DNA of 64,000 nt from Elusimicrobiota bacterium (GCA_035533295.1 DATLUA010000014.1:28534-92533), one strand, 5' to 3'; positions 12,116 to 54,616 are shown, counted from the first letter of the stretch. Notes: generated from the letters alone by a model not told the origin. Program-made: numbers and translations.

Positions 12116-13954
12116 ATGCCTCCGGCATTTAACGTTCGACCCAAGGCGCTAGTCCTGCTTCCGGCTTGGCGGGAAAGAAGCTCGGATGAAGAGGCGTGGA
12201 TTTCCGCGCTGTTGCGCCAGTCGGGCCGATCTCTGGGCGCTATAATCGTCCATGACCCAGGATTCCCCGGCGAGCGCCGGGGCGGGCTTCATTTCTCCCA
12301 CCGGCACTGGCGGGATTTCCGGGAACAGTGCAAGGAGGCGATCTTCGAGAATCCCATCGAAGTCGTCGTCGCCATAGGAGAAGCCGCCAAGGCTGAGAAC
12401 CTTGACGCCTTGTCCGGCTGGGCGCCCAACATTCCGCGCGTCTCCTTGTTCTTGGAGGCGGATCTTTCCGGCCCAAGGCCGCTGCGTCTCAAATCTATTT
12501 CTGACTGCTCTGATCTCGTTTTGTACCGGGGAGACTGGAAAAGCGGCGGCGGGCGCGATTCGTGCATCGGGTTCATCCGAGAGCCGGAAGACGTCCTGCA
12601 GCACATCCGCAACCGCTTCGCGTTGCAATGGCTGCATGTCGGCGCGCCGGAGCCCAAGAGCCCGCCGACCGTCGATATTTTCACGCGTCGAGGGGGAGAA
12701 GCGCGCGCTCGGATAAAACGACTGATTGGCGGACTGGGTCCTGCGGCGCGCGCTCGGCATGTCGAGCTGAGTGGTTTTCGGCAAGCCAATGGAGGCGCGG
12801 CCTTTTGGAATGCAGCGTTTCGCTCTTCTCGCGCTGATTACCTGGTATTTTTGAACGAACTGTTTTGGCTTCCGGACAAAGCCCTGGCCCGGATGCTGGA
12901 GTACTTCAAGATGGGTTCCGCGCTGGCCGTGGTCGGCGCCGCGAGCCGGGAAGCCGCCGATTTGAAGGAAGTTCGCCGCCTGGCTTCGCTCCATCACATG
13001 TCCGGAGGGCATCGGGAATGCGGGCGCTTCCTGCATGCGCACTGCTGGATGCTTAGCCGGCAGGCCTTGAGGCAGACGGGCTTCTTGGATGAAAGGTTCC
13101 GCTGCCGGCGGTTCGCTCTCTATGATTACGGATTCCGCTTGCGCCAAGCCGGGTTTCGGCTTTTCACCGCCACGGATATCGCGGCTTGGCGCATCGGGAA
13201 GAAGGCGGGCGAGGCTTGTGAACCATCCAGCAGCGCCGAGCGAGATCTGGAGCTTTTGGAGAGAAAGTGGTGTGAAAACGGAATCGGAGCTATACTAAGG
13301 CTTTCCCGCAAAACCCAGGGCGGAGGGAAAGCCGTTGCTGCCCGAGCAAACGAAAAGGATTCCGTCTTCGGCGCATGGTTCCGCCACGAGCGGTCGGATT
13401 CCGCAGGCATGAGCGCTGAACTGAGGAATTTGATGAATCAATCCAGGCACGAGAGCGCGCGTTTGTACGCGGATTTCCGCGGGGCCATAGAGGACCGCCA
13501 TGACCGGTTGAGCCGCGAACTCCGGAAAGCTATAGACGAGCGTCATGGCCAGATCACCCGGGATATTTGGAGCGCGGCGGAAAGCCTGCGCGCCCAATCG
13601 CAACGGATGCAGCACGACATGGAAAGATCCATCCGGCCAGAACTGGCCGGCGTGCTGTATCAGCTCCAGAAGCAAGAATCCGAAATCCGCGCATGGGAGC
13701 GGGATAACAGCGCCCGGGTGACGGATTTGCGCGAGGATATGGACGACCGCTATGATAAGCTCGGTCGCGACTTCCGGAGAATCACTGCTCAGATGAGCAA
13801 ACAGTTGAGCGCGGTGGCGGGAAGCTTTTTAGCAGCCATCCTCGCATTGCAGCAAAAACCTGTTCCTTTTCTTAAGAATGGAACAAAAAAAATGGGGAAC
13901 GATGGTGAAAAAACCGTTAAACGCGCGTCCTCCGATTTCCCCAAGGCGAAATAA
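12116..13954 (+). CDS. GT2-like (divergent) glycosyltransferase domain protein with long C-terminal coiled coil
   Basis: The central region FALYDYGFRLRQAGFRL parallels the EDYDYCLRxxQAGY block of the GT2 genes at 46492 and 48426. The DxD position reads NEL (FLNELF), so it may be non-canonical. The last ~200 aa are a heptad-rich coiled coil (RDFRGAIEDRHDRLSRELRKAIDERH...). This is the first gene of the plus-strand operon. Confidence 0.5.
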   Translation: MPPAFNVRPKALVLLPAWRERSSDEEAWISALLRQSGRSLGAIIVHDPGFPGERRGGLHFSHRHWRDFREQCKEAIFENPIEVVVAIGEAAKAENLDALSGWAPNIPRVSLFLEADLSGPRPLRLKSISDCSDLVLYRGDWKSGGGRDSCIGFIREPEDVLQHIRNRFALQWLHVGAPEPKSPPTVDIFTRRGGEARARIKRLIGGLGPAARARHVELSGFRQANGGAAFWNAAFRSSRADYLVFLNELFWLPDKALARMLEYFKMGSALAVVGAASREAADLKEVRRLASLHHMSGGHRECGRFLHAHCWMLSRQALRQTGFLDERFRCRRFALYDYGFRLRQAGFRLFTATDIAAWRIGKKAGEACEPSSSAERDLELLERKWCENGIGAILRLSRKTQGGGKAVAARANEKDSVFGAWFRHERSDSAGMSAELRNLMNQSRHESARLYADFRGAIEDRHDRLSRELRKAIDERHGQITRDIWSAAESLRAQSQRMQHDMERSIRPELAGVLYQLQKQESEIRAWERDNSARVTDLREDMDDRYDKLGRDFRRITAQMSKQLSAVAGSFLAAILALQQKPVPFLKNGTKKMGNDGEKTVKRASSDFPKAK

Positions 13955-15097
13955 ATGAGCCCGCGCCTCAGCTTGATTTTTAAGCTCCTCGCCGAGAAAG
14001 TCGACGCCGGCGTCGCGCGGCTGGACGGAAAAAAAGACGGCCAGCCCATCCGCGAGCTGCATTTGGAGCTCACCCACCGCTGCAACCTAAAATGCGTCAT
14101 GTGCCACCATTGGGAGATGCCTTTCAAGGATCGGGAATCGGTCAAGCGCGAGATGAATCTGGCGCAAATCCGTTCCTTCGTCGAAGGCTCGCAAAGGCTG
14201 AAGGACGTGGAAATCGTGGTCTTGACCGGCGGCGAGCCGTGGCTTAGGACGGACATCGTGGATGTCGCAGCTTTTTTATCCAGCCATTATCCCAAGGCGT
14301 CCTTGGGTATCTTGAGCAATTTCTGGAACACGGAGATGGTCCGCCGGCGCTTGAACGAGCTGCGCGCGCGCGGAGTCAAAAACCTCTGGCTGGGCTCTTC
14401 CCTGGACGGCTTGGAGGAGGCGCACGATGAGGTGCGCGGGCAAAAGGGAGCCTTTAAAGGCCTTATGGAAACCGCGCGCATGATGCGGGCGGAGTTTCCG
14501 GAGGTCCACTTCAGCTTCAGCTTCACCATCACGCCCAAGAACTACCGCGAGCTTTGGCCCGCCTACGAACTTGTCTCGGGCATGGGCTTGTGGTTCGGCG
14601 CCCAAATGGTGGTCGAGCACCAGAAATTCGAGGCGCCCGAGACATTCTCCTGGACCGATGGGCAGCTTTCCGAGATTGAGGGGCAAATTGAGCGGATTTT
14701 GCGGCACCTGGCCGATGAAAACCTGGCTTTGGAGCGCTTGATGCAAGGCAAAGACCGCGAGTCCCTGTGGCTTTGGACCAGACTTTTGTACTGGTGGTAC
14801 CTGGGCAAATACGCGCGCAAGCCCGAACGCTTCTTCAAGGACTGTCTGGCGGGGCAGAGATACGCCATGCTCAGCCCCGAGGGCGACGTATTCTTTTGTC
14901 CCGTGAACAAGCATCGCACCATCGGCAACGTGAAGGAGGCATCGTTCGACGGGGTCTGGGATTCTCGAAAAGCCGAGTCGGAACGGGGCTACGTGGATTC
15001 CTGCCAATGCGACTGCTGGCTTAATTGCATCGCCAATCCCGTTCTAGATCGCGCGATGGCGCTCGGGACGGGCAAGGCCGAGGGCGCGCTGCGATGA
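13955..15097 (+). CDS. radical SAM/SPASM domain protein
   Basis: CNLKCVMC radical SAM motif. C-terminal SPASM-type cysteines (FFCPVNKHRTIGNVKE...FDGVWDS...CQCDCWLNC). The start is immediately adjacent to the upstream stop. Confidence 0.85.
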   Translation: MSPRLSLIFKLLAEKVDAGVARLDGKKDGQPIRELHLELTHRCNLKCVMCHHWEMPFKDRESVKREMNLAQIRSFVEGSQRLKDVEIVVLTGGEPWLRTDIVDVAAFLSSHYPKASLGILSNFWNTEMVRRRLNELRARGVKNLWLGSSLDGLEEAHDEVRGQKGAFKGLMETARMMRAEFPEVHFSFSFTITPKNYRELWPAYELVSGMGLWFGAQMVVEHQKFEAPETFSWTDGQLSEIEGQIERILRHLADENLALERLMQGKDRESLWLWTRLLYWWYLGKYARKPERFFKDCLAGQRYAMLSPEGDVFFCPVNKHRTIGNVKEASFDGVWDSRKAESERGYVDSCQCDCWLNCIANPVLDRAMALGTGKAEGALR

Positions 15098-18066
15098 AAG
15101 TCGCCCTGGTCCAGGCGCCCTACGGCTACCGCGGCCGCGAGGCCCCGCCCTTTTCCGTAGTTTGCCTGGCCGGCTACGTGCGCCATCACGGCCATGCGCC
15201 GCTTTCCATCGATTTCGGCAACGCCCTTTACCATGCCAGTTCCCCGGATTCGCGGGTCATGTGGAATGCCGACCGGTATTCCTTCTGGGAAAATCCCGAC
15301 GCCATCGAACGCCTGCTTCATGAGACCCGTGGAACCACGGACGCTCTTATCCGGCGCATTCTCGAGAGCGGCGCGCGCGTCATCGGCTTCGCGACGCATA
15401 CCACGTCTTTTCTGGCGAGCTTGGCGCTGGCCGAAAGAATCAAGCGCGAGGATCCCTCTCGCCTCATCGTTTTCGGCGGCTACCAGTGCGCGCGCGAGAA
15501 GTCCGGCCTCGCCTTCGCGGCCGATTGGCGCGTCGACGGCGTCGCCGTCGGCGAGGGGGAGCAAACCCTCGTCGAAGCCCTGGCCGGCGTGGAGCGCACG
15601 GGACGCCTGCCGGCAATTCCTGGCCTTCTGGTGCGCGGCGAGGACGGCCGCGTCGTCGATTCCGGCGACCGCGAGCCCATCATGGACATGGACTCGATGC
15701 CGTTCCCGGATTATTCCGACTTTCGGGAGGACATCCGCGCCGGGCTTTATTCCGATCCGCGCCGCCTCGATGTCTTCGACGGGCGCAGTTGCGTGCGGCG
15801 CTGCGCTTTTTGCAACGAGTGGCAGTTTTGGGGGCGCTTCCGCTCCCGCAGCGGACGGCGGATTTTAGAGGAAATTCGGCACCAGATGTCGGAGCATCCC
15901 ACCATCAACCATTTTTATTTTACGGGGCTTCTGGTTAACGGCAATCTGCGCGAGCTCTCGCGTTTCTGCGACTTGGTTCTGGAAAGCGGCCTCAAGTTCA
16001 CCTGGGGCGGGCAGTCCATCGTCCAGCCCGGCATGGATGAAAAGATGCTCAAGAAGATGGCCGCGGCCGGCTGCCGGTGGCTCGGCTACGGCGTCGAGAG
16101 CGGATCTGAGGCGGTGCGCTGGCGCATCAATAAGAAATTCACCAACGAGAACGCATACAAGACGCTCCGAGCGACGGCGGAGGCGGGCATCAAGGCCCAA
16201 ATCAACGTCATGTTCGGCATGCCCAGCGAAACGCGTGACGAATTTCAGGAGACGCTGTCCTTCTTGACCCGCGTCAGACCGTACCTGGACTCGATTCTGG
16301 CCAGCCAATCCTTCTGCGTCATCGATAAGGACACGCCCCTGCACCGCAATCCCGAGCGCTACGGGATCACCAATCAGGATCACCACCTTTTTTGGGAATC
16401 CAACGGCGGCGAGAACAACTACGCCGAGCGCTTCCGGCGCTATGAAGAATTTTGCAAGCTGGCGCTGTTCTTGGGAGTTCCGGAAACTTCGGGCGTGCTC
16501 TCGCGCAAGCCGGATAAGTGGTTTTTGCTGGGCTCGTATTACGAGTATAAAAAGCAGCCGCTCAAGGCCGTGCTCTATCTGCGCCGCTCTCTCCTCCATG
16601 AAATTGTTGGCAAGGACACTCTGACCCGGCTGGCCGGGCTTTACGCGCAATTGCGGCATCCGGCCCGCGCCTGGGCTTTACTGCAGGCGGCCCTGAGTCT
16701 GACGCCCGAGGGCGCTGCGGATGCCGGCGACGATAGCCTGCGCGTCCGCCGGGACGCCCTTTTTCCTTCCGTTCAGGATAAGTCCCTCGCGATGATCTGG
16801 CTCAGGCGCAGGCCGTGGGGACGCGCCCTGCGCCTCAAAGAGGCGGATTCAGTTGCTGCGGAGCGTAACGGCACGGGGGAAGCCGCGCGCCGCGCAGCGA
16901 ACATCGCCTTGAACGGGGACGAGTTTAACGGCCGCAAGGAGGTCCTTTCCTCGACCCCGTCGTTGGTCACTTTGGGGACCCATAACGCGTGCAACGCCAA
17001 GTGCGTCTTTTGTCTGGAAGGCAGCTATTCGCGCTTTAGCCTCGATATCTACAAGAAATTTTTCGAGGCGAAGATGGGACACTTCATACGCCAAGCGGAT
17101 CGGGTGACTTTCACCGGCTTTGGAGAAATCCTGTGGATACCCGGCATCGAGGAGTTCTTGGACTACATCAATGAGACTCTCCCCGACGCGGAGAAAATTT
17201 TCACGACCAATGGGACGCCGCTGCGTCCTTCGGTTCTTGAACGCATCGCGAAGGGGAAATACGGCATCCAAATCTCGCTGCATGCCTCCCACGCCGCGCT
17301 TCATCAGGAATTGACCCTCTTGAACGGGCAGTTCGGACAAATCTTGGAAAATATCAGAAGCCTAAGCGCACTGCGGCAGCGCCCTGGATTGGATAAAAGG
17401 ATTTTCGTTCATTTAGTCAACGTTCTGACCCGGCGGAATATCGACGATTTGACCGATTTTATCCGAATGTCCGTGGATTTGGGCGTTCAGAGCGTCCGCT
17501 GTCAGCATGTGACGATGTTCGTTCCCGAGCATATCGAGCAATCTTGCTTTTTCGATCAGGAACGGGCCAACGCCAGCATCCGACGCGCCGCGACCTTGGT
17601 GGAGGCGATCAAGCTCAAGCACCCGAAGACGACTTTTATTGCCTCGTTGCCGCCTCTTTTTGGTTCCCGCGCCCAACTGCAAAACACCGTCTGTTACGAT
17701 CCGTGGCAGCATGTCTATGTCGAACTCCAGGGCTCGGTCATTCCTTGCTGCATGTGGGGCGACCACATTGGGAACTTGAACAAGGGCGATGATATCGACA
17801 AGGTGTGGAACAGCCGATTCTACCAGGACTTGCGCCGCGGCATGGCTTCCGGGGATCCGCATCCTTGGTGCAAAAGCTGCGTGCGCTACGCCGGCTACAA
17901 CGTGGACAGTATTTTCTGCCACATCACCAACCGTCCCGAGGCCCAAAAGGCAGTTTTACGGGAAGTTCTGCGGCGAGGCTTGCCTCTGGAAAAATCCGAC
18001 AAGGCCGCGGCCGCGAAAATGCTCGGCAAGAATATGCCTGCCGGTTCGGGGGTCCTCGCGGCATGA
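15094..18066 (+). CDS. fusion: B12-binding-domain radical SAM + TPR-like linker + second radical SAM/SPASM domain
   Basis: The N-terminal half has MKVALVQAP, a GEGEQTL cobalamin-domain motif and CVRRCAFC. The C-terminal half has CNAKCVFC plus SPASM (VIPCCMWGDHIGNL...VWNS...CKSCVRYAG). ATGA overlap with the upstream gene at 15094. The ORF is trimmed from 15025. Confidence 0.85.
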   Translation: MKVALVQAPYGYRGREAPPFSVVCLAGYVRHHGHAPLSIDFGNALYHASSPDSRVMWNADRYSFWENPDAIERLLHETRGTTDALIRRILESGARVIGFATHTTSFLASLALAERIKREDPSRLIVFGGYQCAREKSGLAFAADWRVDGVAVGEGEQTLVEALAGVERTGRLPAIPGLLVRGEDGRVVDSGDREPIMDMDSMPFPDYSDFREDIRAGLYSDPRRLDVFDGRSCVRRCAFCNEWQFWGRFRSRSGRRILEEIRHQMSEHPTINHFYFTGLLVNGNLRELSRFCDLVLESGLKFTWGGQSIVQPGMDEKMLKKMAAAGCRWLGYGVESGSEAVRWRINKKFTNENAYKTLRATAEAGIKAQINVMFGMPSETRDEFQETLSFLTRVRPYLDSILASQSFCVIDKDTPLHRNPERYGITNQDHHLFWESNGGENNYAERFRRYEEFCKLALFLGVPETSGVLSRKPDKWFLLGSYYEYKKQPLKAVLYLRRSLLHEIVGKDTLTRLAGLYAQLRHPARAWALLQAALSLTPEGAADAGDDSLRVRRDALFPSVQDKSLAMIWLRRRPWGRALRLKEADSVAAERNGTGEAARRAANIALNGDEFNGRKEVLSSTPSLVTLGTHNACNAKCVFCLEGSYSRFSLDIYKKFFEAKMGHFIRQADRVTFTGFGEILWIPGIEEFLDYINETLPDAEKIFTTNGTPLRPSVLERIAKGKYGIQISLHASHAALHQELTLLNGQFGQILENIRSLSALRQRPGLDKRIFVHLVNVLTRRNIDDLTDFIRMSVDLGVQSVRCQHVTMFVPEHIEQSCFFDQERANASIRRAATLVEAIKLKHPKTTFIASLPPLFGSRAQLQNTVCYDPWQHVYVELQGSVIPCCMWGDHIGNLNKGDDIDKVWNSRFYQDLRRGMASGDPHPWCKSCVRYAGYNVDSIFCHITNRPEAQKAVLREVLRRGLPLEKSDKAAAAKMLGKNMPAGSGVLAA

Positions 18067-18800
18067 CCGAATGGTCCGGGCGGCTCGAGGGCGACGCCGT
18101 CTGGAGCGGCGACGTATTGGTCTCCGGGGACGTGGTCGTTCCGCCGGGCGCCAAGCTGCGCGTGGCAGCCGGCACCCGGGTCAGCTTCGCTTCCCGACCG
18201 AAGTGGTCCTGCGCGGTTTTTCGCGCGGCGCCGGAGGGCTACCCCATCGAGGCATCCGATCGGGAAGCCTGCGATCTCGTGGTTTTGGGCCAGCTCGAAG
18301 TCGCTGGCTCACCGGAAAACCCTGCCGTCTTTGGCGGCCAGGACGCCCAGTGGGGCGGCATGATTTTTTTGGAGCGCGCGGCGGCAACTCTCCAGCATTG
18401 CGTAATTAAAGTTGGAACTGAATACGCTCTGCAGGCTTTCGACGATGCGCGCTTGGCCCTGGAGGACTGCGGGTTGGAAGAGGCGCAGGTGGGAATCGCG
18501 TCCCGCGGGCTTTCCCACGTTAGCATTTTAGGCGGCCGCGTGCGCGCTGGGCGCTGCGGCGCGGTGGCCTGCGAAGGCTCGCGTATAACCTTGGACAAGA
18601 CTCAGATTCTGGATTCGCCGCAAGGGCTCTGCGCGGAGGATTGGGCGCTCGTCCGGGCGACGGGATCCCGATTCACGGCCAACAGAGATTTCGCCGTTTC
18701 GGCCCGAGGGTATTCCTGGGCGCGGTTCGACGGCTGCGACTTTGAGAAATCCGGCGAAACGGCTCTCAGGTGGGAACATGCCAGAATCGATGTCCGCTAG
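18063..18800 (+). CDS. right-handed beta-helix repeat protein
   Basis: Repetitive G-x-V/L beta-helix rungs (GDAVWSGDVLVSGDVVVPPGAKLRVAAGTRVSF; LGGRVRAGRCGAVACEGSRITL). ATGA overlap at 18063. The ORF is trimmed from 17805. Confidence 0.6.
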   Translation: MTEWSGRLEGDAVWSGDVLVSGDVVVPPGAKLRVAAGTRVSFASRPKWSCAVFRAAPEGYPIEASDREACDLVVLGQLEVAGSPENPAVFGGQDAQWGGMIFLERAAATLQHCVIKVGTEYALQAFDDARLALEDCGLEEAQVGIASRGLSHVSILGGRVRAGRCGAVACEGSRITLDKTQILDSPQGLCAEDWALVRATGSRFTANRDFAVSARGYSWARFDGCDFEKSGETALRWEHARIDVR

Positions 18801-20145
18801 GCTCTTTCGCGGCCTGTTCCCCTACGCTGAAAAGAGGGTGGCGCGGCGGCTCTGTCGTCTCGGTCTTTGGCGCAAGCTCGCCAATTATCTTTGGGTTGAA
18901 TTTCTAATCGGGCGGGGCTCCGTTCGCATGTGGGGGGGCAAGCCCTACTGGCTCACCGTCGATCCGACGAATTTTTGCCAGCTCCACTGCCCCTTTTGCC
19001 CCACGGGCGCCAACCGGGGGGTGCGCGGTAAATCGTCCATGTCCCTGGAACATTTCAAGAAGTTCCTCAATCGCGTCGGTCCGTGCGTCATCCACATGGA
19101 CATGATGAATTGGGGCGAGTCGCTGCTGAACAAGAACCTGCCGGACATGATTGCCCACGCCAAGCGCTACGGCATCGAAGTCAAGCTCGACGCCAACTTC
19201 AACGATGTCTCCGAGGAGACCGTTGAGAGGCTCGTCCTGTCGGGCCTCGACGTTCTGAGCGTCTCCATCGATGGAATTTCCCAGGAGACCTATGGCCGAT
19301 ACCGCGTCGGCGGGAAACTGGATCGGGTTTTGGCGAATCTTGAGGTTTTGGTGCGTAAGCGCCGGGAACTGGGTCGAGCCACCCCGCACATCATCTGGCA
19401 ATTTCTGGTTTTCCGCCACAACGAGCACGAGGCGGGAGGCGTCGAGTCATTCGCGCGCGCGCGCGGCGTGGACCAAGTGAGCTTCGTGGCCCCCTTCCTG
19501 CCCAACGAGCCGGGTTATTTGTCGGAATGGTCCGCTCGCGCGCCCAATTTTCGCCTTTACCCCCTGCCGGAAAAAGAACCGACGCCCGAGGAAATGGAGC
19601 GCGCTAAAAACAGCGTTCATGTAAAGCAGGTTCCTTCGGCGGAGGCTTTTCACGCGCGACGGTTTCAGTCCCGCCACCTGCTGAACTGGATATACCTTTC
19701 CGGCTTACTGACGCAGGCGCGCGGTCTTGAGAGTGGGATGAGGGAAATCTGGCGGCGGATGAGGGCGGCCATTTCCCAGGCGAAGGCTTCCGCGGCGGGC
19801 TTGGACACGGCGCCTTTTTCCGGAGCCAAGGGAGGCGCTCGCGCTATTTGCAAATGGCCCTGGGCCGGCATGGCGGTTAATCCCAACGGCAGCGTGTCGC
19901 CCTGCTGCAGCATTGAGAGCGAGTCCGACGATTTCGGTAGCGCCTTCGCGCAGGGCTGGGGAATGCTTTGGAACGGCCCGAAATATCGCGCGTCCCGACG
20001 ACATGTTCGCCGTTACGTTAAAAATCGCCGCGGAGTTCTTCCACACGCGGATCATGTCTGTGAACGCTGTACGGCCATCGGCTACGCCAATTTTAAATTT
20101 CCCATTCAGTGGACCAAGGACGCGCCGGAGGGCAAAAGCGCATGA
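18778..20145 (+). CDS. radical SAM/SPASM domain protein
   Basis: CQLHCPFC motif. C-terminal SPASM (NPNGSVSPCC...GMLWNGPKY...CERCTAIG). Start chosen at the ATG at 18778 with AGGTGGG upstream; the TTG at 18742 is an alternative. Overlaps the upstream gene by 23 nt. Confidence 0.8.
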   Translation: MPESMSARLFRGLFPYAEKRVARRLCRLGLWRKLANYLWVEFLIGRGSVRMWGGKPYWLTVDPTNFCQLHCPFCPTGANRGVRGKSSMSLEHFKKFLNRVGPCVIHMDMMNWGESLLNKNLPDMIAHAKRYGIEVKLDANFNDVSEETVERLVLSGLDVLSVSIDGISQETYGRYRVGGKLDRVLANLEVLVRKRRELGRATPHIIWQFLVFRHNEHEAGGVESFARARGVDQVSFVAPFLPNEPGYLSEWSARAPNFRLYPLPEKEPTPEEMERAKNSVHVKQVPSAEAFHARRFQSRHLLNWIYLSGLLTQARGLESGMREIWRRMRAAISQAKASAAGLDTAPFSGAKGGARAICKWPWAGMAVNPNGSVSPCCSIESESDDFGSAFAQGWGMLWNGPKYRASRRHVRRYVKNRRGVLPHADHVCERCTAIGYANFKFPIQWTKDAPEGKSA

Positions 20146-22109: not shown

Positions 22110-22117
22110 GGCCGCCA

Positions 22118-22146
22118 TTGACAATGGGGGGGCATGCCGCTATCCT
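22118..22146 (+). promoter_or_regulatory. candidate internal sigma70-type promoter (TTGACA-17-TATCCT) embedded in palindrome CCATTGACAATGG
   Basis: Consensus -35 TTGACA at 22118-22123, a 17-nt spacer and a -10-like TATCCT at 22141-22146. The -35 sits inside the perfect 13-nt palindrome at 22115-22127. This lies in the only sizeable gap (55 nt) of this part of the operon. Confidence 0.3.
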
Positions 22147-22164
22147 TAATGAGATTATCGCGCG

Positions 22165-27502: not shown

Positions 27503-27518
27503 AAAGGGAGGAAGGCCT

Positions 27519-40184: not shown

Positions 40185-40233
40185 AGGATTCTCCCGCGCC
40201 GCAATTCTTTCATGCCCTGGTGCGCCTGGCGCG

Positions 40234-41895: not shown

Positions 41896-41900
41896 GAGCG

Positions 41901-43838: not shown

Positions 43839-43839
43839 C

Positions 43840-44787
43840 TCATTCGGGCGCGCACGAGGTCCAAGGCGAGGCGTACTTTCCGATGTTGTTGAGTATATAG
43901 CGGACATGTTTGGCTCCGGCGGAATTCCCAGCCCTACTGTAATCCGAAAGAGCCTTGTGCCAAAAAGCCTCCGCCTTGGCCGTGTCGCCGCAGGCCGCCT
44001 CCGCCGCGCCCATTTTCAGCAGGATGTCCATCGCGTGCGTGGATTGCGGATTGCAGGCGAGGAGCGTCAAGTCTCCCCGGCCTGCTTGGCGCGCCGTGGA
44101 CCAGTCGTCCATGCCTTCCCATATATCAAGGGCCATCGCGGCCGCCGCGATGGCGTCCGAGCAGTCCGACGGCGTCGCGAATTCGCGTCGATTTTTTTTA
44201 AGCGACGCCTGGAGCGCGGAGAGTCGGGTGCTGGCCTCTTTCGGCCGCCCCGCGGCGACGGCGTGCTGCGCTTGGCCAAGGCGTAGAATCGCCTTTTCTA
44301 ATGCGGTGCAGCCAGGGGAGGATGAGCACCGTTGGCGAGCGTCGGTCAGGGCGTGCTCTGCCTCGGATTTTTGCCCCAGGGCATCCAGAATTTCGGCCCG
44401 ATGAATGATGATCCAGGCCCACATCGGGGAGAATGAGCCGCAGTCCTGGGCCGCCTGCTCCAGCAAACCCGCCGCCTTCTTTTGTTCGCCGGAAGCGGCG
44501 TAAACTTGGGCCAGGCGCTGGAGGGAGTCGGCGTAGTCGCTTCCGGACTGGCGGCCTTCTTCGCGGTAAAGGCGCAGGGCGGTCTTGAACTCTTGTTCGG
44601 CTTGCGGGAGTTCGCCGGCTCCCAGCGCGATTTCGCCGGCGCGCTGGTGGGCCAGGGGGTCGCCTGCGGTGCTGGGCGAAAAAGGGAAGAGATGGAAAAA
44701 GCGCAGGGTTAACGCTAGAAGCGCGGCCAGGATGGCGAAGGAAATTATCGAGCGGGGAAAGCGCCTCATTAACGGCAATTTTCTCAT
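43840..44787 (-). CDS. membrane-anchored TPR-like protein
   Basis: N-terminal TM helix (IISFAILAALLALTL) and helical A/L/E/Q-rich repeats. Confidence 0.6.
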   Translation of the reverse strand: MRKLPLMRRFPRSIISFAILAALLALTLRFFHLFPFSPSTAGDPLAHQRAGEIALGAGELPQAEQEFKTALRLYREEGRQSGSDYADSLQRLAQVYAASGEQKKAAGLLEQAAQDCGSFSPMWAWIIIHRAEILDALGQKSEAEHALTDARQRCSSSPGCTALEKAILRLGQAQHAVAAGRPKEASTRLSALQASLKKNRREFATPSDCSDAIAAAAMALDIWEGMDDWSTARQAGRGDLTLLACNPQSTHAMDILLKMGAAEAACGDTAKAEAFWHKALSDYSRAGNSAGAKHVRYILNNIGKYASPWTSCAPE

Positions 44788-44815
44788 ATATGGGATGGCG
44801 GTTTCAAACTAGATT

Positions 44816-46426: not shown

Positions 46427-46491
46427 TTGAAGACGGCGTAAAATAGTATACTTATCTCTCTAGAAAATAAAGCGGAAGCCAAAAACTAAAG

Positions 46492-47307
46492 ATGAAAACC
46501 GCGCCCATCGCAAGCTTGGTCATTCTTTGCCATAACGACGGGGACTATTTGAAAGAGTGCCTGCAAAACGTCTCCAGGCATGCTAAAGTTCCCTACGAAG
46601 TCATTATCGTGGACAACGCCAGCGCCGGCGCTTCCGCCAAGTATGTGAAAAGCCTCGTCCGCCGGACCGCCTTCACGGTCATCCGCAACAAGGAAAACCT
46701 CTATTTCGCGGCAGGCAACAACCAGGGCATCGAAGCGGCGCGGGGCAAGTACGTCGTGCTTTTAAACGCCGACGCCGTTGTCGGCCCGGGTTGGCTTGAA
46801 CTTATGATCCGTTGCGCCGAGCGTGACAAAAAAATCGGCTTGGTCGCTCCGCGCACCAACGGCGCGACCAGCGTGCAGCTGGTCGAGAATCCGGGCTACG
46901 GCTCCGTCGCGGAATTCCCCGCTTTCGCCCGGCAGTGGGCCCGGCGCCATCGGGGCAAAAGCTTCGCGGCCCATCGGCTTATCGCGTTTTGTCTGCTCAT
47001 CAAGCGGGAAATTATCGAAACGGTCGGTCTTTTGGACGAGCGTTTCGGCCCCGGCGGCTATGAGGATTACGACTACTGCCTGCGGGTCCAGCAGGCAGGT
47101 TACAAGACGGTCGTGGCCCAAGATGTATTCGTCCACCACTACGGCGGCAAGGGCTACTCGAACATGGACTACGATCATCACCGCCGCCTTAATCGGGAGC
47201 TTCTGGCCCGCAAATGGTCGCGCCATGCCTTCCACGTTCTTGACGACATGGACGGCGTGCGCATGGCCCTGACGCGCGAGGCCGCTGACGCTCCGTCGGG
47301 AGCTTAA
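46492..47307 (+). CDS. GT2 family glycosyltransferase
   Basis: VILCHNDGDYL, VDNAS, DAD (LLNADAV) and YEDYDYCLRVQQAGYKTV. Confidence 0.85.
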   Translation: MKTAPIASLVILCHNDGDYLKECLQNVSRHAKVPYEVIIVDNASAGASAKYVKSLVRRTAFTVIRNKENLYFAAGNNQGIEAARGKYVVLLNADAVVGPGWLELMIRCAERDKKIGLVAPRTNGATSVQLVENPGYGSVAEFPAFARQWARRHRGKSFAAHRLIAFCLLIKREIIETVGLLDERFGPGGYEDYDYCLRVQQAGYKTVVAQDVFVHHYGGKGYSNMDYDHHRRLNRELLARKWSRHAFHVLDDMDGVRMALTREAADAPSGA

Positions 47308-47316
47308 GCGTCGGGC

Positions 47317-48429
47317 ATGCCCCCTACTCGTCCTGAGGTCGAAAGCTCTCCGGCGACGGTCTTCGCCAAGGACAAGATTTACGGCCATATGGACCGGGTC
47401 CGCGAATGGGTCCAGACCGGCCTTTCCCGCCCCGTCACCATCGAGATGGACCTCACCAATCTGTGCAATCAGAAGTGTCCGCACTGCTTCGGCTACGCGC
47501 CTGAGCGGGATGCGGCGCGCATGCACTTGGAGGAAGCCAAGCGCATCATCTCCCAGATTAAAGAGGTCGGCGCGCGCGGCCTGACGTTCACGGGCGGCGG
47601 CGATCCTCTAGTGAGCCCCATTTGCCTGCCCTGCGTCGAGCACGCCCGCTCCCTGGGCCTGGACGTGGGCTTTATCACCAACGCGCAGGCCCTGACCGAG
47701 GCGCACGCGCGGACGCTCTTGTCCTGCTGCCAGTGGCTGCGCGTGAGCATCGACGCCGCCACCCCGGAAGTGTTCATGAAGACGCACGGGATGGATGAAA
47801 AAATGTTCCGCAAAGTGCTGGACAATGTCCGGCTCCTGGCGCGCATCAAGCGCGAGACGGCCTCCGCTTGCACCTTGGGCGTCGGATTTTTGACCAGCCC
47901 CGAGACCAAGAAGGACATCTACGCTTTCGCCGAACTGGGCCTTGATTCGGGCGTGGATTACGCGCAGTACCGGCCTCTCCTGCGCCGCCACGGCGCGGCG
48001 GACGTGGACTATTCCGATCCGGAAATTCTCTCAGAGATGCGCCGAGCCGCGGCCTTGTCGACCGCGGCTTACCGCGTGGTTTCTTCCGAGCACAAATACG
48101 AGCTCATCGCCCGAGGCGAGCTCGAGCGGGACTATAAGAAATGCTACGGCCAGCATTTCGCGGCGGTTGTCTCCGCGGACAAGAAAATGTATGTCTGCTG
48201 CCACATGCGCGGCGTGGAGAAATACTGCCTGGGCGACTTGTCCAAGCAAAGCTTGAATGAGATTTGGTCATCCGAACACCGGAAAAAAGTGGCGGAGAGC
48301 GTGGACTTCAAGGATTGCCCCCCGTTGTGCCGCTGCGATTCCTTTAATACGATTCTCTGGAAAATAAAGGAAGAAGGCGCGCCGGCGGATTCGGACCCGC
48401 AGCCGCGCGCGCATCCGAACTTCATTTGA
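47317..48429 (+). CDS. radical SAM/SPASM domain protein
   Basis: CNQKCPHC and C-terminal SPASM (KKMYVCCHM...LNEIWSSEH...CPPLCRCDS). Confidence 0.85.
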   Translation: MPPTRPEVESSPATVFAKDKIYGHMDRVREWVQTGLSRPVTIEMDLTNLCNQKCPHCFGYAPERDAARMHLEEAKRIISQIKEVGARGLTFTGGGDPLVSPICLPCVEHARSLGLDVGFITNAQALTEAHARTLLSCCQWLRVSIDAATPEVFMKTHGMDEKMFRKVLDNVRLLARIKRETASACTLGVGFLTSPETKKDIYAFAELGLDSGVDYAQYRPLLRRHGAADVDYSDPEILSEMRRAAALSTAAYRVVSSEHKYELIARGELERDYKKCYGQHFAAVVSADKKMYVCCHMRGVEKYCLGDLSKQSLNEIWSSEHRKKVAESVDFKDCPPLCRCDSFNTILWKIKEEGAPADSDPQPRAHPNFI

Positions 48430-49763
48430 GCCGGCAATCGCCGATGCGAACGCGGATGGCCGCGCCGGCTAAAATCCGAGCGATTGTTCCCAGGCTGAGG
48501 GAAGATTCGTGCGCCGCGTTCGCCCACCGGCTAAAGAGATTTCTCCGCGCCCTGCCTCGCGGGACCGAGGAGATTTTTGCCGGCGAGGAACTTGGAGACG
48601 CCGGCGTTGCGCCGCTTAAAAACCTCCGAGACCTGGGCATCGTCGTCGTCGAGCACGCGCTGACCCAGCCGGTTCTGCGCCATCTCTCGCGCGAGTCGCC
48701 CTTTTTATCCTTGATCGTCGCGCGGCTTTGCCGCGATGACGGCGCGGATTCCTTTTCCGGGCACTGGATGCCAAACTGGTACGGCACTCCGCCGGTCTGG
48801 GCCGAGGAGCTCTGGGACTTTTCCCGGGATTTCGAGTCCGAGGAGAAATCCCGCCTTCTGCCGCGGCGGGTCTTTTTGGGGCAAAAAATCGAAAGCGGCT
48901 GGATCGCGGAGCGCCTGGGTGAAATCGAACGGATGCGGCCCGCTCGTCCGCGGCGCGGTTTGGCCAGCATCATCATTCCCTGCTGGAACGGCCTTGCCTA
49001 CACGCGCAAATGCCTGGCTTCCGTTCTCAAGCGCACCGACGGACCGCACGAAATCATCATCGTTGACAACGGCTCCAAGGACGGCACGGCAGGCTACGTC
49101 CAGTCCTTGAAGAACCCGAAAATCAGGCTTATCAAGAACCGGAGCAACCGCGGTTTTCCCGTGGCGGTGAATCAGGGGATGAGGGCGGCCAGGGGCGATT
49201 ACTTCGTTTGGTTGAACAGCGACGCGGTCGTGACTGACGGCTGGCTGGGGCGCCTGGTCTCGTGGGCCGAACGTTCGCCGCGGGTCGGCGCGGTCGGGCC
49301 CTGCTCCAATGATCCGGGGATATCGTTCCAGCTCCAGGACGGCGCGCCCCAAGGAAGCGACAAGGCCGCCGCGTTCGCGCGGGCGCTCGCCGAGATGAAT
49401 TCAGGCCGCAGTACTTGGGTGCCGCTGATTACCGGCTTTTGCTTTTTGGTCAAGAAAGAAGCCGTCGACCGCATCGGGCTTTTGGATGAGCGCTTCGGCC
49501 TGGGCATTTACGAGGATTATGACTACTGCCTAAGGCTGCGGCAGGCCGGCTACGGAATTTTGATGGCGCAGGACGTCTTTGTCCATCATTCCCGTCACAA
49601 GACCTTCGAGCATAACGGCGTCGACGATCCGTCCGCCGCAGCCGGAAACCGGGACTTGTTCATCCATAAGTGGTGCCGCTTGGCGATGGAGTTTTTGGAC
49701 AGCTGCGGCAACTCGCAGTTTTTTACGCTAAAAGCGCCCGATAAACTTCGCCGATCCCTTTAG
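48426..49763 (+). CDS. GT2 family glycosyltransferase with ~180-aa N-terminal extension
   Basis: SIIIPCWNGLAYT, VDNGSKDGT, LNSDAVV and YEDYDYCLRLRQAGYGIL. The TTG at 48426 forms a TTGA overlap with the upstream gene; the ATG at 48444 is an alternative start. Confidence 0.8.
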   Translation: MSRQSPMRTRMAAPAKIRAIVPRLREDSCAAFAHRLKRFLRALPRGTEEIFAGEELGDAGVAPLKNLRDLGIVVVEHALTQPVLRHLSRESPFLSLIVARLCRDDGADSFSGHWMPNWYGTPPVWAEELWDFSRDFESEEKSRLLPRRVFLGQKIESGWIAERLGEIERMRPARPRRGLASIIIPCWNGLAYTRKCLASVLKRTDGPHEIIIVDNGSKDGTAGYVQSLKNPKIRLIKNRSNRGFPVAVNQGMRAARGDYFVWLNSDAVVTDGWLGRLVSWAERSPRVGAVGPCSNDPGISFQLQDGAPQGSDKAAAFARALAEMNSGRSTWVPLITGFCFLVKKEAVDRIGLLDERFGLGIYEDYDYCLRLRQAGYGILMAQDVFVHHSRHKTFEHNGVDDPSAAAGNRDLFIHKWCRLAMEFLDSCGNSQFFTLKAPDKLRRSL

Positions 49764-50961
49764 CGCGGGCCGACCAGTCATGGTTTTGCTGGACGAAGTC
49801 TTGTCCCGCCGCGGAGAGGCGCCGCCAGAGCTCCTCGTCTTCCAGCAGCCGCAGGGTTTCCCGGGCGAATTTCCTGGGCGAGTCGGCGATGAGCAGGTGG
49901 CGGCCGGCCTCGGCGCCCACGGCTTCGTTGGCGCAGGCCGTGGAGACCACCGGCGTGCCCATGGCCAGGGCCTCGAGGATTTTTCCTTTGATGCCGTAGC
50001 CCAGCTTGAGCGGCGCCACCAGGACCATCGCGCGGGCTTCGTAGGGCTTGACGTCCGGGACGGTGCCGGTGACGACGATGCCGGCATCCTTCGCGGCCAA
50101 GTCTAGAATGTTTTTCGTCGGATAGGAGCCGACGACGTAAAACTTGGCTCGCGGCCGCGCCGCCTTAATTCTCGGCCAGGTTTGGGCGGCGAAGCGCAGC
50201 ACCGCCTCCTCGTTCGGGTAATGCGGGTAGTGACCGACGTAAACGAGGCTGTCGGGCTCGCGCTCCCGGCGCGGCGGCCCTCCCGAGAAATGCTCCAAAT
50301 CCACGCCGGTCGGAACGCTGAAGACGCGGTTAAGGGGAACCCAGCGGCCCATCCGCCGCCGGTCGGCTTCGCTTACGGTGATGACGGCCTCGAAGCGGCG
50401 GCACAGTTCCTTTGTCGCGCGCAGTCTCCTGCGCCAGTCGCCTAATCGGCGCCATTTATTCCAGCCGGACATCTCCCGAAAATAGGACGAGAAAAAGGAC
50501 AGCGCGGAAAGGTCGTGGTGCGTCAGGACGCAGGGAAGCCTTGGATTCTCCGATTTCGCGGCGCGGACATAGGGCGCCATCAAGTCGAACTCCGCGTGAA
50601 GCAGGTCGGGCTTTATTTCGCGGACGGCTTTTTTCACGGCTTCGTTCATGTCGGGGGCGTGGAATCCCGCGATTTCCCGGGGCAGATCCAGGCCATCATC
50701 CATCCGCGGAAAATAATTCGCCGGCGGCGCCGCGTGCCGGAGGCTCTGGAACAAGCCCTGGAAATAGAGCTTTTCTTGGCACAGGGCCGCGGCGGCGGTT
50801 TGCTTGGGGTCATCCCCGCCGGGGCGCAGGAAGGTCAGCAGGTGAAAATCGTATGAGTCCTTGAGCAGGCGGCAGGCGGTCCAAATGCGCCGGGAGCCGG
50901 CGTCGGTGGGAATCGGCGCCCAGGGAGTCAGCAGCAGGACTTTCGGTTTGCGCGCGCTCAT
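49723..50961 (-). CDS. GT4 (GT-B fold) glycosyltransferase
   Basis: C-terminal donor-binding block (KGKILEALAMGTPVVST...ADSPRKFA). The 478-aa ORF is trimmed to MSARKPKVLLLTPW at 50961. It overlaps the convergent GT2 at 48426-49763 by 41 nt. Confidence 0.75.
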   Translation of the reverse strand: MSARKPKVLLLTPWAPIPTDAGSRRIWTACRLLKDSYDFHLLTFLRPGGDDPKQTAAAALCQEKLYFQGLFQSLRHAAPPANYFPRMDDGLDLPREIAGFHAPDMNEAVKKAVREIKPDLLHAEFDLMAPYVRAAKSENPRLPCVLTHHDLSALSFFSSYFREMSGWNKWRRLGDWRRRLRATKELCRRFEAVITVSEADRRRMGRWVPLNRVFSVPTGVDLEHFSGGPPRREREPDSLVYVGHYPHYPNEEAVLRFAAQTWPRIKAARPRAKFYVVGSYPTKNILDLAAKDAGIVVTGTVPDVKPYEARAMVLVAPLKLGYGIKGKILEALAMGTPVVSTACANEAVGAEAGRHLLIADSPRKFARETLRLLEDEELWRRLSAAGQDFVQQNHDWSARAKGIGEVYRALLA

Positions 50962-50972
50962 GTCGAATCGAG

Positions 50973-52001
50973 TTATTTTATAAAAGATTTGGGCAAAGGC
51001 CTTCCGGCGAGAAATCCGGTTCCGTAGGCGAGATGGCACAGCGGCACCAGCGCGAAAAACAGGAGTCCGGCGGCCGGGTTTTTGCTCTTCCAGGCGCCGC
51101 GAGCGGCCGCTCCGGCGGCGGCCAGGGCGTAGAGCGCGGGCGCTATCCAAAAGGGCCAAGCGGGCCGCGCGGCGGCCAGAAAAACGGCGTAAAGGACGAG
51201 GACGGCGGGGAAGAAGAACACGGCTTGGGCCGCGCGCGGGAGCTTGCGCGTGATTTGCCGCCGGCCCACGCCCGATTCGTAGACCTGAGACAGGAATTTC
51301 CCCAGTTCGGCTCGCCGGCGATGATAAACGGCCAGGACCGGGGCGTAGAGCGCGCGGCGTCCCAAGGCGCGAAGATTTAAAACGAAAAGATTTTCCTCCG
51401 CGGAGGCCAGATGAGGATCAAAGCGCAGCCCCAATTCCCGAAAAGCCGCCGCCCGCGCGCAAAGATTGCACAGGGCGAAGGATTTTTCATCGGCCCGGAG
51501 CATCCGAGGCCCGGGGGCGTAGCGCCGGCGCATGGGTCCCGCGCCAATCCAGGATTCCAGCACTAGGCCCGAGGCGCGCTCGAAAAGGCCGCTGCCGGGC
51601 GGCGTCAAGTTTGGCCCGCCCAAAACCCACGCGTCGCCGTGCTTAGCGATAAGGCTGGCCGCCTCCGCGAAGAGCCCCGGCGGGGCCTCGACGTCGTCAT
51701 CGAGGAAGTAAATCCATTCTCCCCGCGTCCGCGCCAGGGCGGCGTTGCGCGCGGCCCCGCGCGATTGCCGCTCCAGCAGGATGATTTCCAGGCATGGGAT
51801 AAGAGCCGAGAACGAGCGCGCCATGTCGACGTCTTCCATATCCTCCCCGTTGACGGCGACGACGATTTCCCGGACCAAGCGCAGATCCGCCGCCTGCAGG
51901 CTCCTGAGGCAGGAACGCAGGAGCTCCGGGCGCCGGTGGGTGAGGACCAGCACGGAGAAAAGAGCTTCGCGGCTCGATGCGCCTGCCGGAGCGGGCGTCA
52001 T
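50973..52001 (-). CDS. GT2 family glycosyltransferase, C-terminal TM helices
   Basis: FSVLVLTHRR, a DDD motif (IYFLDDDVE) and C-terminal hydrophobic helices. The ORF is trimmed from 52100 to M34 (52001), giving an ATGA overlap with the upstream gene. Confidence 0.7.
   Translation of the reverse strand: MTPAPAGASSREALFSVLVLTHRRPELLRSCLRSLQAADLRLVREIVVAVNGEDMEDVDMARSFSALIPCLEIILLERQSRGAARNAALARTRGEWIYFLDDDVEAPPGLFAEAASLIAKHGDAWVLGGPNLTPPGSGLFERASGLVLESWIGAGPMRRRYAPGPRMLRADEKSFALCNLCARAAAFRELGLRFDPHLASAEENLFVLNLRALGRRALYAPVLAVYHRRRAELGKFLSQVYESGVGRRQITRKLPRAAQAVFFFPAVLVLYAVFLAAARPAWPFWIAPALYALAAAGAAARGAWKSKNPAAGLLFFALVPLCHLAYGTGFLAGRPLPKSFIK

Positions 52002-54616: not shown

Follow-up and report, generated by a model that had tools for sequence, protein, structure and literature searches.

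A radical SAM enzyme array of Elusimicrobiota and its candidate role in envelope glycan assembly

Gene content of the locus

Here, we explore a 42.5-kb locus of an Elusimicrobiota bacterium (positions 12116-54616 of a 64,000-nucleotide stretch, GCA_035533295.1 DATLUA010000014.1:28534-92533, hereafter the window) in which radical S-adenosylmethionine (rSAM) enzymes stand among glycosyltransferases (GT), SGNH-type hydrolases and tetratricopeptide repeat (TPR) proteins. The locus was read as 32 translated long open reading frames (ORFs; 31 when the two TPR ORFs at 37120-38845 are counted as one frameshifted gene), which form four transcription blocks of alternating direction with intergenic gaps of at most 77 bp (Table 1). 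The canonical CxxxCxxC motif occurs 16 times, spread over 15 ORFs between 13955 and 48429, and every motif reported in the initial annotation was recovered at its gene (those of Table 1, together with CNYRCPYC once and CNYRCSYC four times in the five CNYRC paralogs). Shuffling the residues within each of the 32 proteins yielded a mean of 0.13 motifs (maximum 2), which bears out the earlier view that the rSAM density of this one locus is exceptional; an extra, 17th match (CGDKCGGC) lies in the N-terminal tail of the ORF at 29257.

All 15 motif-bearing ORFs matched PF04055, 14 of them above the cut-off of 29.5 bits, so the possibility that most were not of the rSAM fold did not come true. The remaining one (41901-43907) fell 0.2 bits short in Pfam and cleared NCBIfam NF033640 (394.8 bits vs a cut-off of 170; profile positions 1-397 of 398, residues 270-666), the one curated family that scored above its cut-off among all 16 rSAM-like proteins. 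By class, the array comprises four B12-type enzymes (one of them a B12/SPASM fusion), six SPASM-type enzymes (one with an N-terminal twitch) and five paralogs of the twitch-like CNYRC family. The SPASM profile PF13186 exceeded its cut-off in six proteins, in agreement with the annotated number (13955, 18778, 22165, 31130, 41901 and 47317), and also in the second half of the fusion at 15094. PF02310 (B12-binding) did so at 20142, 32550 and 38853, and came just short in the fusion (cut-off 32.1 bits); by domain layout (N-terminal PF02310 followed by the rSAM core) the B12-type proteins are predicted class B, cobalamin-binding enzymes. The annotation had counted four such enzymes plus a fused fifth: four stand with the fusion included, and the fifth is a degenerate protein (26126-27502) in which the middle cluster cysteine is replaced by histidine (CxxxHxxC). 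Its two closest relatives share the replacement, and CxxxCxxC is intact in orthologs at 41-45% identity; the protein may be a pseudo-enzyme or carry an altered cluster site.

The partner genes were likewise largely as annotated, and the rSAM genes are co-operonic with them. Profile matches confirmed the GT4 (49723), the PMT_2 membrane protein with TPR (51998), the metallo-beta-lactamase-fold (MBL) hydrolase (28588) and the TPR/Sel1 proteins, as well as the kpsF and mutM flanks (KpsF, TIGR00393, 276 bits vs 203.7). Three of the four proposed GT2 or GT2-like enzymes held (46492, 48426 and 50973), the one at 12116 remaining under the PF00535 cut-off, and of three proposed SGNH hydrolases the one at 35846 was recovered, those at 34231 and 40234 scoring below the Pfam threshold.

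Table 1. Protein-coding features of the locus and its left neighbour (window coordinates; scores in bits)
Position	Strand	Product	Evidence
10330-11973	-	KpsF/GutQ-type isomerase, 547 amino acids (aa)	SIS + CBS core from about residue 230-265
12116-13954	+	Opens plus-strand block; 612 aa, weak GT2-like core and long C-terminal helical region	PF00535 19.5 vs cut-off 23.3
13955-15097	+	rSAM/SPASM, CNLKCVMC	PF04055 53.6, PF13186 31.4; NCBIfam matches all far under cut-off
15094-18066	+	990-aa fusion, B12-type rSAM (CVRRCAFC) and rSAM/SPASM (CNAKCVFC)	PF04055 in two stretches, PF13186 40.6, PF02310 30.7; best NCBIfam match TIGR03975, 131 vs 282
18063-18800	+	245-aa beta-helix-like protein, start overlaps upstream stop	PF13229 21.1, under cut-off
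18778-20145	+	rSAM/SPASM, CQLHCPFC	PF04055 48.7, PF13186 39.3
20142-22109	+	B12-binding rSAM, CVWQCRFC	PF02310 44.3, PF04055 70.2; TIGR03975 139 vs 282
22165-23337	+	rSAM/SPASM, CNADCVFC	PF04055 64.8, PF13186 40.5
23334-24293	+	CNYRC-family rSAM, first of three tandem paralogs	PF04055
24290-25297	+	CNYRC-family rSAM, second of three	PF04055
25290-26138	+	CNYRC-family rSAM, third of three	PF04055
26126-27502	+	B12-rSAM-like, degenerate CRWSHPSC	PF02310 19; PF04055 no match
27519-28595	+	CNYRC paralog 4, Cys/Gly-rich N-terminal tail	PF04055
28588-29229	+	MBL-fold hydrolase	PF12706, PF13483
29257-30582	+	CNYRC paralog 5, Cys/Gly-rich N-terminal tail and low-complexity insert	PF04055
30579-31133	+	184-aa protein, one hydrophobic segment near C-terminus (residues 135-153)	Hydropathy scan
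31130-32527	+	rSAM/SPASM, CSVHCIMC, helical N-terminal extension of about 115 aa	PF04055 53.2, PF13186 26.2
32550-34154	+	B12-binding rSAM, CVRRCSFC, weak C-terminal TPR	PF02310 42.4, PF04055 72.4; TIGR03975 129 and HpnJ 122, both under cut-off
34231-35865	+	Membrane-anchored SGNH-like protein with TPR	Lipase_GDSL_2 22, under cut-off, weak TPR; hydrophobic segment residues 10-28
35846-37102	-	Membrane-anchored or secreted SGNH hydrolase	PF13472 53.8; hydrophobic segment residues 8-26
37120-38845	-	TPR protein read as overlapping ORFs 37943-38845 and 37120-38310	TPR matches
38853-40184	-	B12-binding rSAM, CMWRCRYC	PF02310 43.8, PF04055 69.8
40234-41895	-	Membrane-anchored SGNH-like protein with TPR	Lipase_GDSL_2 26.5, under cut-off, TPR_16 38.7; hydrophobic segment residues 9-27
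41901-43907	-	Sel1 repeats and N-terminal-twitch rSAM, SPASM before rSAM core, CNFRCRMC	Sel1 95.9, SPASM 48.1, PF04055 29.3
43840-44787	-	Membrane-anchored TPR protein	TPR_12 46.9; hydrophobic segment residues 10-28
44816-46426	-	536-aa protein of no assigned family, GISDIDLL motif	Possibly Pol-beta-type nucleotidyltransferase
46492-47307	+	GT2	PF00535 85.6
47317-48429	+	rSAM/SPASM, CNQKCPHC	PF04055 53.6, PF13186 34.8
48426-49763	+	GT2	PF00535 116
49723-50967	-	GT4	PF13692 86.2, PF13439 55
50973-52001	-	GT2 with two C-terminal hydrophobic segments, directly downstream of the GT-C gene	PF00535 66, PF13632
51998-54616	-	Polytopic PMT_2 (GT of the C fold, GT-C) membrane protein with long C-terminal TPR domain	PF13231 30.1 vs 26.1, many TPR families

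The five CNYRC paralogs (23334, 24290, 25290, 27519 and 29257) are 31-37% identical to one another (41 invariant columns), give only sub-threshold partial matches to PF13186 and keep four to five invariant C-terminal cysteines. Their best-scoring curated family is STM4011 (NF038073), nearly the whole profile of which could be aligned in three of them, but the scores (56-73 bits, about 72 for the three tandem paralogs) stay far under its cut-off of 200; they represent an rSAM family without a curated model, described in the sources just as 'radical SAM protein'. A profile built from the five retrieved at least 728 representative clusters (50% identity, E <= 1e-30) among 1.84 billion. Paralogs 3, 4 and 5 each find a clear one-to-one best match in Endomicrobiaceae (paralog 3 in Omnitrophota and Planctomycetes as well); the paralogs therefore separated long ago and probably have different tasks. 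The sequence search of the PDB returned generic matches alone, and an AlphaFold2 (AF2) model (predicted local distance difference test, pLDDT, 90) matched generic SPASM/twitch enzymes at a template modelling (TM) score of about 0.5, with SuiB, anSME and CteB (peptide maturases) and BlsE at the top. Since these matches span peptide-acting and nucleotide- or sugar-acting enzymes, the fold leaves the substrate undecided. Solitary CNYRC homologs (Alphaproteobacteria and elsewhere) stood in unrelated neighbourhoods and were uninformative, as was a search with the N-terminal-twitch enzyme, which had no match in plasmids and three distant ones in jumbo phages.

Related arrays, gene fusions and neighbourhoods

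Metagenome contigs (ENA ERZ27256814 and others) encode an identical protein and show the same order of genes. A scan for the CNYRC motif, run on a single genome from each species, gave 281 confirmed relatives, the best 80 of which lie in 71 loci (each of no more than about 21 kb; loci and proteins carry L and P handles). These belong mostly to Elusimicrobiota, with many from Omnitrophota and Planctomycetota, which places the window in an Elusimicrobia genome of metagenomic origin. The number of rSAM-like genes per locus has a median of 6, reaches at least 10 in 20 loci and peaks at 17, and two overlapping loci of one Elusimicrobiota contig jointly hold about 20 on one strand. The same classes recur across loci (the B12-rSAM/SPASM fusion, SPASM enzymes, B12 enzymes and several CNYRC paralogs).

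The closest relatives share the locus itself. Two of them (L003 and L063, with proteins about 79-92% identical) are collinear with the left half of the window, and L077, located on the same contig as L063 (about 79% identical), keeps the order of the right half: PMT_TPR, GT2, GT4, GT2, rSAM/SPASM, GT2 and the 536-aa gene, continuing with TPR, Sel1-rSAM, SGNH with TPR, TPR and SGNH as in the window. This array also adjoins the same MutM, rhodanese and PLD genes as the right flank of the window. The content of the locus is somewhat fluid: in L077 the TPR gene is unsplit, and the B12-rSAM gene at 38853 has no counterpart at its position (the flanking genes there lie 20 bp apart), so the number of rSAM genes differs between close relatives. 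The initial annotation had called the region an accessory island set between housekeeping genes. Its account of the flanks was accurate (arginine decarboxylase, Era-like GTPase, HemW-like rSAM, valyl-tRNA synthetase, rhodanese, aldehyde dehydrogenase and FTCD), but the island reading found no support in the comparison, because relatives share the gene order and the right flank, the guanine-plus-cytosine content is similar inside and outside (0.58-0.61 vs 0.60-0.66), no mobility gene was seen at the locus and the same families form arrays in three phyla. As these arrays recur across phyla and close relatives share the locus, the rSAM density is a trait of a widespread conserved system and not of a single strain.

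Covalent fusions show the company kept by the CNYRC family. Among its 147 best representatives 47 are fused: 17 to a second CNYRC domain in tandem, about 17 to a B12- or SPASM-rSAM, six to TPR, two to MBL (the orders MBL-CNYRC and CNYRC-MBL both occurring) and five to glycosyltransferases. Some polypeptides, unusually large for such fusions, carry three or four rSAM domains of the CNYRC, B12 and SPASM types (P0076, P0072, P0074, P0101 and P0112), with four of them in one protein of 1482 aa (P0076). The glycosyltransferase fusions read GT2-GT2-GT4-CNYRC in three cases, GT2-GT4-CNYRC in one (its gene followed by SGNH with TPR, GT4 and GT2) and GT4-CNYRC in one. Two of the GT2-GT2-GT4-CNYRC genes (L079 and L080) stand directly after Wzt (ABC_tran and Wzt_C), with Wzm in one locus, WecG in one, and Wzy_C and a further GT2 in both, which is the usual arrangement of an ABC-transporter O-polysaccharide locus. 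Aligned with window paralogs, the rSAM domain of the L079 fusion shows 34-35% identity (E = 1e-54). Because the genes of the window recur, in the same mix, as partners in these fusions, we reason that they work together.

The neighbourhoods point the same way. Of the 71 loci, 27 have homologs of the window's GT2, SGNH or PMT_TPR genes at a distance of no more than 10 kb. In L078 (proteins 46-82% identical) PMT, PMT_2 and four SGNH genes are interleaved with rSAM genes on one strand, and in L074 nine consecutive rSAM genes are followed by a PMT gene and a giant protein with pentapeptide repeats and TPR. A CNYRC homolog of 28% identity belongs to a GT2-rSAM-GT2-rSAM series near nucleoside diphosphate (NDP)-sugar epimerase/dehydratases, PMT_2, a methyltransferase and NeuB, while genes absent from the window (named from reading the sequences: a putative GT-C, a membrane GT2, a carbamoyltransferase, and heptosyltransferase-like and O-antigen-ligase-like proteins) stand beside Omnitrophota arrays. 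In the window itself, the GT4 at 49723 and the PMT_2/TPR protein at 51998 are closest to PEP-CTERM/XrtA exopolysaccharide families, although under the cut-off, and kpsF adjoins the locus. On these sequence comparisons the locus is placed with glycan assembly.

Two unrelated neighbours, that is, a non-glycan rSAM operon lying beside an ordinary exopolysaccharide or protein-glycosylation locus, could give a similar picture, and the alternating directions of the four transcription blocks, the many related loci that show only rSAM genes within 10 kb and the fluid content (the gene at 38853, present here and absent in a close relative) would all suit such a split. We give this reading only a slim chance, given that three of the four blocks contain rSAM genes (among them GT2-rSAM-GT2), that in L078 these are interspersed with PMT and SGNH genes along a single strand, and that the CNYRC family is covalently joined to GT2/GT4, MBL and TPR.

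Some further gene sets were observed around the arrays. A conserved membrane peptide (about 60 aa, with PF(I/V)Y(A/T/V)LF at its end; L016 20477-20665, L029 20012-20200, L030, L045 and L013) is encoded beside Omnitrophota arrays, near carbamoyltransferase-like and GT-C genes; a role as precursor is unlikely for it. A cassette of Myxococcota, Pirellulaceae and Acidobacteria (L071, L072 6074-12311, and L073) joins a 605-aa GT-like protein, one rSAM/SPASM and two CNYRC-like enzymes with a secreted protein that has three Asp/Asn-rich repeats of about 60 aa and is a possible protein substrate. Separate sets of rSAM and PqqD genes lie beside the GT-fused CNYRC genes in L081 (7078-13629, minus strand) and L079 (11772-17979), one with ScmC and two 57-aa ORFs, the other with NTP_transf_5, an S24 peptidase and an ABC exporter; this adjacency may not be due to chance.

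A candidate envelope glycan pathway and its alternatives

The hydropathy scan detected no hydrophobic segment in the rSAM enzymes and one N-terminal segment each in the three SGNH proteins and the TPR protein at 43840; the topology is therefore that of a cytoplasmic enzyme array, membrane transferases and outward-facing anchored proteins. The interpretation we favour, to which we assign about an even chance, is that this conserved set of chromosomal genes makes an envelope glycan or glycoconjugate, the building blocks of which are rebuilt by the rSAM array. The cytoplasmic enzymes would act serially on a sugar-nucleotide or lipid-linked oligosaccharide, the B12-type members methylating unactivated carbons and the SPASM/twitch and CNYRC members bringing about oxidation, epimerisation, dehydration or cross-linking, while TPR/Sel1 modules could keep the enzymes together. 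The soluble GT2 and GT4 would then assemble the glycan. The membrane GT2 and the GT-C might form a donor-synthase/transferase pair (by analogy with ArnC/ArnT or Ppm1/Pmt) that puts a lipid-phosphate-linked sugar on an acceptor outside the cytoplasm, picked by the TPR domain, and the anchored SGNH/TPR proteins would acylate or deacylate there. Domain content, gene order, topology, conservation and fusions, from which this scheme is drawn, are established, and all of its chemical steps are what we infer from them.

Several observations weigh against the glycan interpretation. The 64-kb window holds no initiating phosphoglycosyltransferase, flippase, Wzm/Wzt, polymerase or nucleotide-sugar synthesis gene. 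The GT-fused relatives are, at the sequence level, only about 35% identical to the window paralogs, and the substrate class may not transfer over such a distance. The nearest curated models of the B12 enzymes are RiPP (ribosomally synthesised and post-translationally modified peptide) C-methyltransferases, the CNYRC folds lie near SuiB, anSME and CteB, and a PqqD-like gene closes the array in four Elusimicrobia relatives. The pairing of GT2 and GT-C is suggested by adjacency and topology, the sequence matches of the GT2 in the PDB being of the PglI type and not GtrB, ArnC or DPMS. Moreover, no rSAM enzyme is known to us from surface polysaccharide synthesis in bacteria, which leaves the proposed chemistry without a direct precedent.

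The closest functional analogies are O-polysaccharide assembly lines and pairs of lipid-phosphate-sugar synthase and GT-C. O-polysaccharide loci of the ABC-transporter type combine Wzm/Wzt with multidomain GT polymerases (e.g., WbdA/WbdD of E. coli O9a); the distant CNYRC domains end GT2-GT2-GT4 chains encoded after Wzt, and the window has GT2, GT2, GT4 and rSAM as separate genes. However, the whole window lacks Wzm/Wzt, an initiating transferase and a ligase and, having neither exporter nor initiator, falls outside this class; to our knowledge, no characterised O-polysaccharide pathway uses rSAM enzymes. The second analogy rests on pairs such as ArnC/ArnT, GtrB/GtrC and Ppm1/Pmt, in which a lipid-phosphate sugar synthase serves a GT-C: the window GT2 with two C-terminal segments lies directly downstream of the polytopic PMT_2 gene, and PMT genes recur beside the arrays, but the window GT-C differs in that it ends, like TMTC-type enzymes, in a TPR domain (about 450 aa). 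For the tailoring of sugars by rSAM enzymes, the closest enzymatic precedents come from aminoglycoside and nucleoside antibiotics (GenK, BtrN, AprD4, DesII and BlsE). There B12- or twitch-type enzymes act on the carbons of sugars, the CNYRC model has BlsE among its best structural matches, and the 536-aa window protein weakly resembles aminoglycoside nucleotidyltransferases; these are, in contrast, small-molecule routes with one to three rSAM enzymes and without GT-C/TPR or anchored SGNH proteins.

The main rival holds that the array matures a peptide or protein, encoded elsewhere or represented by the TPR, beta-helix or Cys/Gly-tailed proteins of the locus, and that GT2 and GT-C glycosylate it; we hold it to be unlikely. 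As in proteusin/polytheonamide clusters, several B12 and SPASM enzymes share an operon, and TIGR03975 is the top model for all four B12 enzymes, which score best against it and against ApyD (RiPP C-methyltransferases). The SPASM enzymes resemble peptide maturases, as do the best CNYRC folds. Still, every curated RiPP model was missed by a factor of at least 2 (TIGR03975: 131, 139, 129 and 133 bits vs 281.85), and RiPP clusters also differ from the window in that it has no precursor, RiPP recognition element (RRE), protease or exporter and links its rSAM genes to GTs, GT-C and SGNH proteins. The lack of a precursor peptide, RRE and leader protease, claimed at annotation, was reproduced throughout the window: PF05402 (PqqD-like RRE) matched no window protein (N-terminal extensions not being profile-compared), two PqqD-like queries gave nothing better than E = 6.5 in tblastn, and the 32 locus proteins contain no peptidase or ABC transporter domain. 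In most of the rSAM enzymes only 40-80 residues separate CxxxCxxC from the N-terminus, too few to accommodate a fused RRE.

Outside the window, four relatives have a PqqD-like gene after the last CNYRC/MBL genes (L005 7208-7495, L007 12309-12650, L032 at about 11479-11763, and L035 11291-11584) and PqqD genes lie a few kb from the GT-fused proteins of L079 and L081, all of which would fit peptide maturation. In the latter two loci, however, they sit with other rSAM classes in apparently separate operons, and no small ORF is kept near the arrays or in the gaps next to PqqD genes: clustering of 570 small ORFs from the 71 loci found only the membrane peptide mentioned above (presumably DUF5989-like) and PqqD to be conserved, tblastx of the gaps beside PqqD genes recovered nothing conserved, and the small ORFs read at 60300-64000, beyond the locus, were not notable. 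TPR and Sel1 modules on cytoplasmic rSAM enzymes are peptide-binding folds, and GT-C enzymes of the PMT family with TPR domains act as protein O-mannosyltransferases in eukaryotes and actinobacteria; both count for a peptide or protein substrate, and so does the repeat protein that follows an rSAM pair in L071-L073. The same can be said of the Cys/Gly-rich tails of paralogs 4 and 5 (window 27519-27570 and 29257-29310: MGSCGTGGCSGCGTKH; MSGCGDKCGGCGGGCGS; and MGGCGGGCGSGCGSGCGSG in relatives), which are kept in the orthologs of L003, L004, L006, L008, L009, L040 and L063, are missing from more distant ones, and could be either an extra metal/Fe-S site or a built-in substrate-like peptide. Against all this stands the fusion of the CNYRC family to polymerase-type GT chains in O-polysaccharide export loci. 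If the array did mature peptides, it would be among the most elaborate systems of that kind known.

A further alternative, improbable in our view, is the tailoring of lipids or lipid A, with rSAM enzymes that methylate, cyclise or bridge lipid chains or a head group, SGNH proteins as lipases or acyltransferases and PMT_2 as an ArnT-like transferase. The B12 enzymes also match HpnJ (110-122 bits), HpnR and the lipid B12-rSAM family TIGR04072, several proteins weakly match Tes, SGNH is the GDSL lipase fold, PF13231 includes ArnT-type enzymes, and kpsF, which adjoins the locus, is a gene of the Kdo pathway. Nevertheless, the matches to HpnJ, HpnR, TIGR04072 and Tes are all far under cut-off, neither the window nor the gene families that related loci have in common include a gene for fatty acids, isoprenoids, glycerol lipids or lipid A, and the CNYRC family is fused to glycosyltransferases and not to lipid enzymes.

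Literature searches found no description of such rSAM arrays, of the CNYRC family or of a matching characterised cluster, in accordance with the assumption that this is not a known system; the gene set is unusual, apparently undescribed, and fits no textbook class. The annotated statement that it is neither a textbook RiPP cluster nor a standard polysaccharide locus thus holds as to textbook classes, yet the fusions and contexts push it further to the polysaccharide side than that wording allows. The closest published observation comes from groundwater Elusimicrobia, in which Meheust et al. (10.1101/765248) reported a large set of rSAM proteins beside group VI nitrogenase paralogs, with up to 13 rSAM genes per locus, some fused to B12 domains, and read these loci as tetrapyrrole reduction, with no mention of glycosyltransferases or SPASM in that connection. 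The phylum, the abundance of rSAM genes and the presence of B12 domains in some of them are shared with our arrays, and a tetrapyrrole-type cofactor pathway could be considered on this ground. We nonetheless judge it very improbable: the arrays have no nif paralog within 10 kb, tblastn found no NifH-like sequence in the window and the related loci L001-L073, the locus has no tetrapyrrole gene (the only HemN_C protein being the separate HemW-like one at 4937-6049), and glycosyltransferase, SGNH and GT-C genes would have no place in such a route. A nif-linked cofactor locus was rejected on the absence of NifH.

Returning to the glycan interpretation, we tentatively suggest, with clearly less than even confidence, that the arrays constitute a new class of pathway, for which we use the term radically tailored glycans, where up to about 20 rSAM enzymes would reshape the sugar units in a surface polysaccharide or glycoconjugate. 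If so, C-methylation, C-C or C-O cross-links and epimerisation would be brought to glycans much as RiPP pathways bring such changes to peptides, no rSAM family before CNYRC would have been devoted to glycan assembly lines (in which it would also serve as terminal domain of O-polysaccharide polymerases), and the arrays would be a lineage-wide envelope trait of Elusimicrobiota, Omnitrophota and Planctomycetota. A locus with 15 rSAM enzymes would imply sugar modifications not yet seen, in a field (rSAM chemistry on bacterial surface glycans) that is essentially unexplored. Being conserved in three mostly uncultured phyla and costly (each enzyme needs Fe-S clusters and SAM, some also cobalamin), the arrays likely shape the cell surface of their hosts and their dependence on B12. 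With its at least 728 clusters and fusions pointing to glycosyltransferases, the CNYRC family offers defined targets for enzymology, the easiest entry point being the GT2-GT2-GT4-rSAM proteins of ordinary-looking O-polysaccharide loci.

Individual genes and flanks

Several smaller features of the locus are conserved in relatives. The gene call of the 990-aa fusion was taken from the identical metagenome contig (ORF coordinates 15025/15094-18066). The beta-helix-like gene at 18063 occupies the same position in L011, L039, L043, L063 and L078, its product finding no match in the PDB sequence search. The gene for the 184-aa protein (without match in the Pfam and NCBIfam scans) directly follows CNYRC paralog 5 in L003, L006, L008, L009, L040 and L063; its start (MKIYLSYS...) presumably resembles that of a TIR-like domain. 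The first protein of the locus (12116-13954) has no NCBIfam match and no hydrophobic segment.

On the right half, the 580-aa TPR ortholog of L077 aligns by tblastn with two window frames that overlap at 37991-38175, and the split of this gene (37120-38845) would stem from either a frameshift or an assembly error. The 536-aa protein (44816-46426) had no match in Pfam, NCBIfam or the PDB sequence search; its AF2 model (pLDDT 79) gave weak Foldseek matches to ANT(3'')(9), AAD(9) and ANT(4') (E 0.1-2, not significant), on which it is possibly a Pol-beta-type nucleotidyltransferase. Only seven homologs (P0065-P0071) were found among 5.8 billion clusters, both contexts that were read (P0068 and P0070) lie inside rSAM arrays, and weaker matches stand upstream of the fusion gene in Endomicrobiaceae. 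The GT2-rSAM/SPASM-GT2 triplet (46492-49763) is one operon, recurring as such in L077. The GT4 is closest to TIGR03087 (PEP-CTERM/XrtA-system glycosyltransferase; 190 bits vs a cut-off of 317). The hydrophobic segments of the GT2 at 50973 span residues 293-311 and 343-361 of the long ORF (its L077 ortholog has 341 aa), and the GT-C protein at 51998 (L077 ortholog 870 aa) has six such segments and scores 176 bits vs 312 against PrsT (TIGR02917).

Beyond the borders of the locus, the KpsF-type isomerase carries an N-terminal extension of about 230-250 aa ahead of its SIS and CBS core, and the HemW/HemN-like rSAM protein (plus strand, Radical_SAM and HemN_C), the sixteenth of the motif type in the window, lies among the housekeeping genes. 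The Rfam search returned no riboswitch or other family beyond two tRNA genes on the minus strand, tRNA-Glu(TTC) at 61196-61266 and tRNA-Cys(GCA) at 10194-10269, the latter 1.8 kb to the left of the locus border with kpsF in between.

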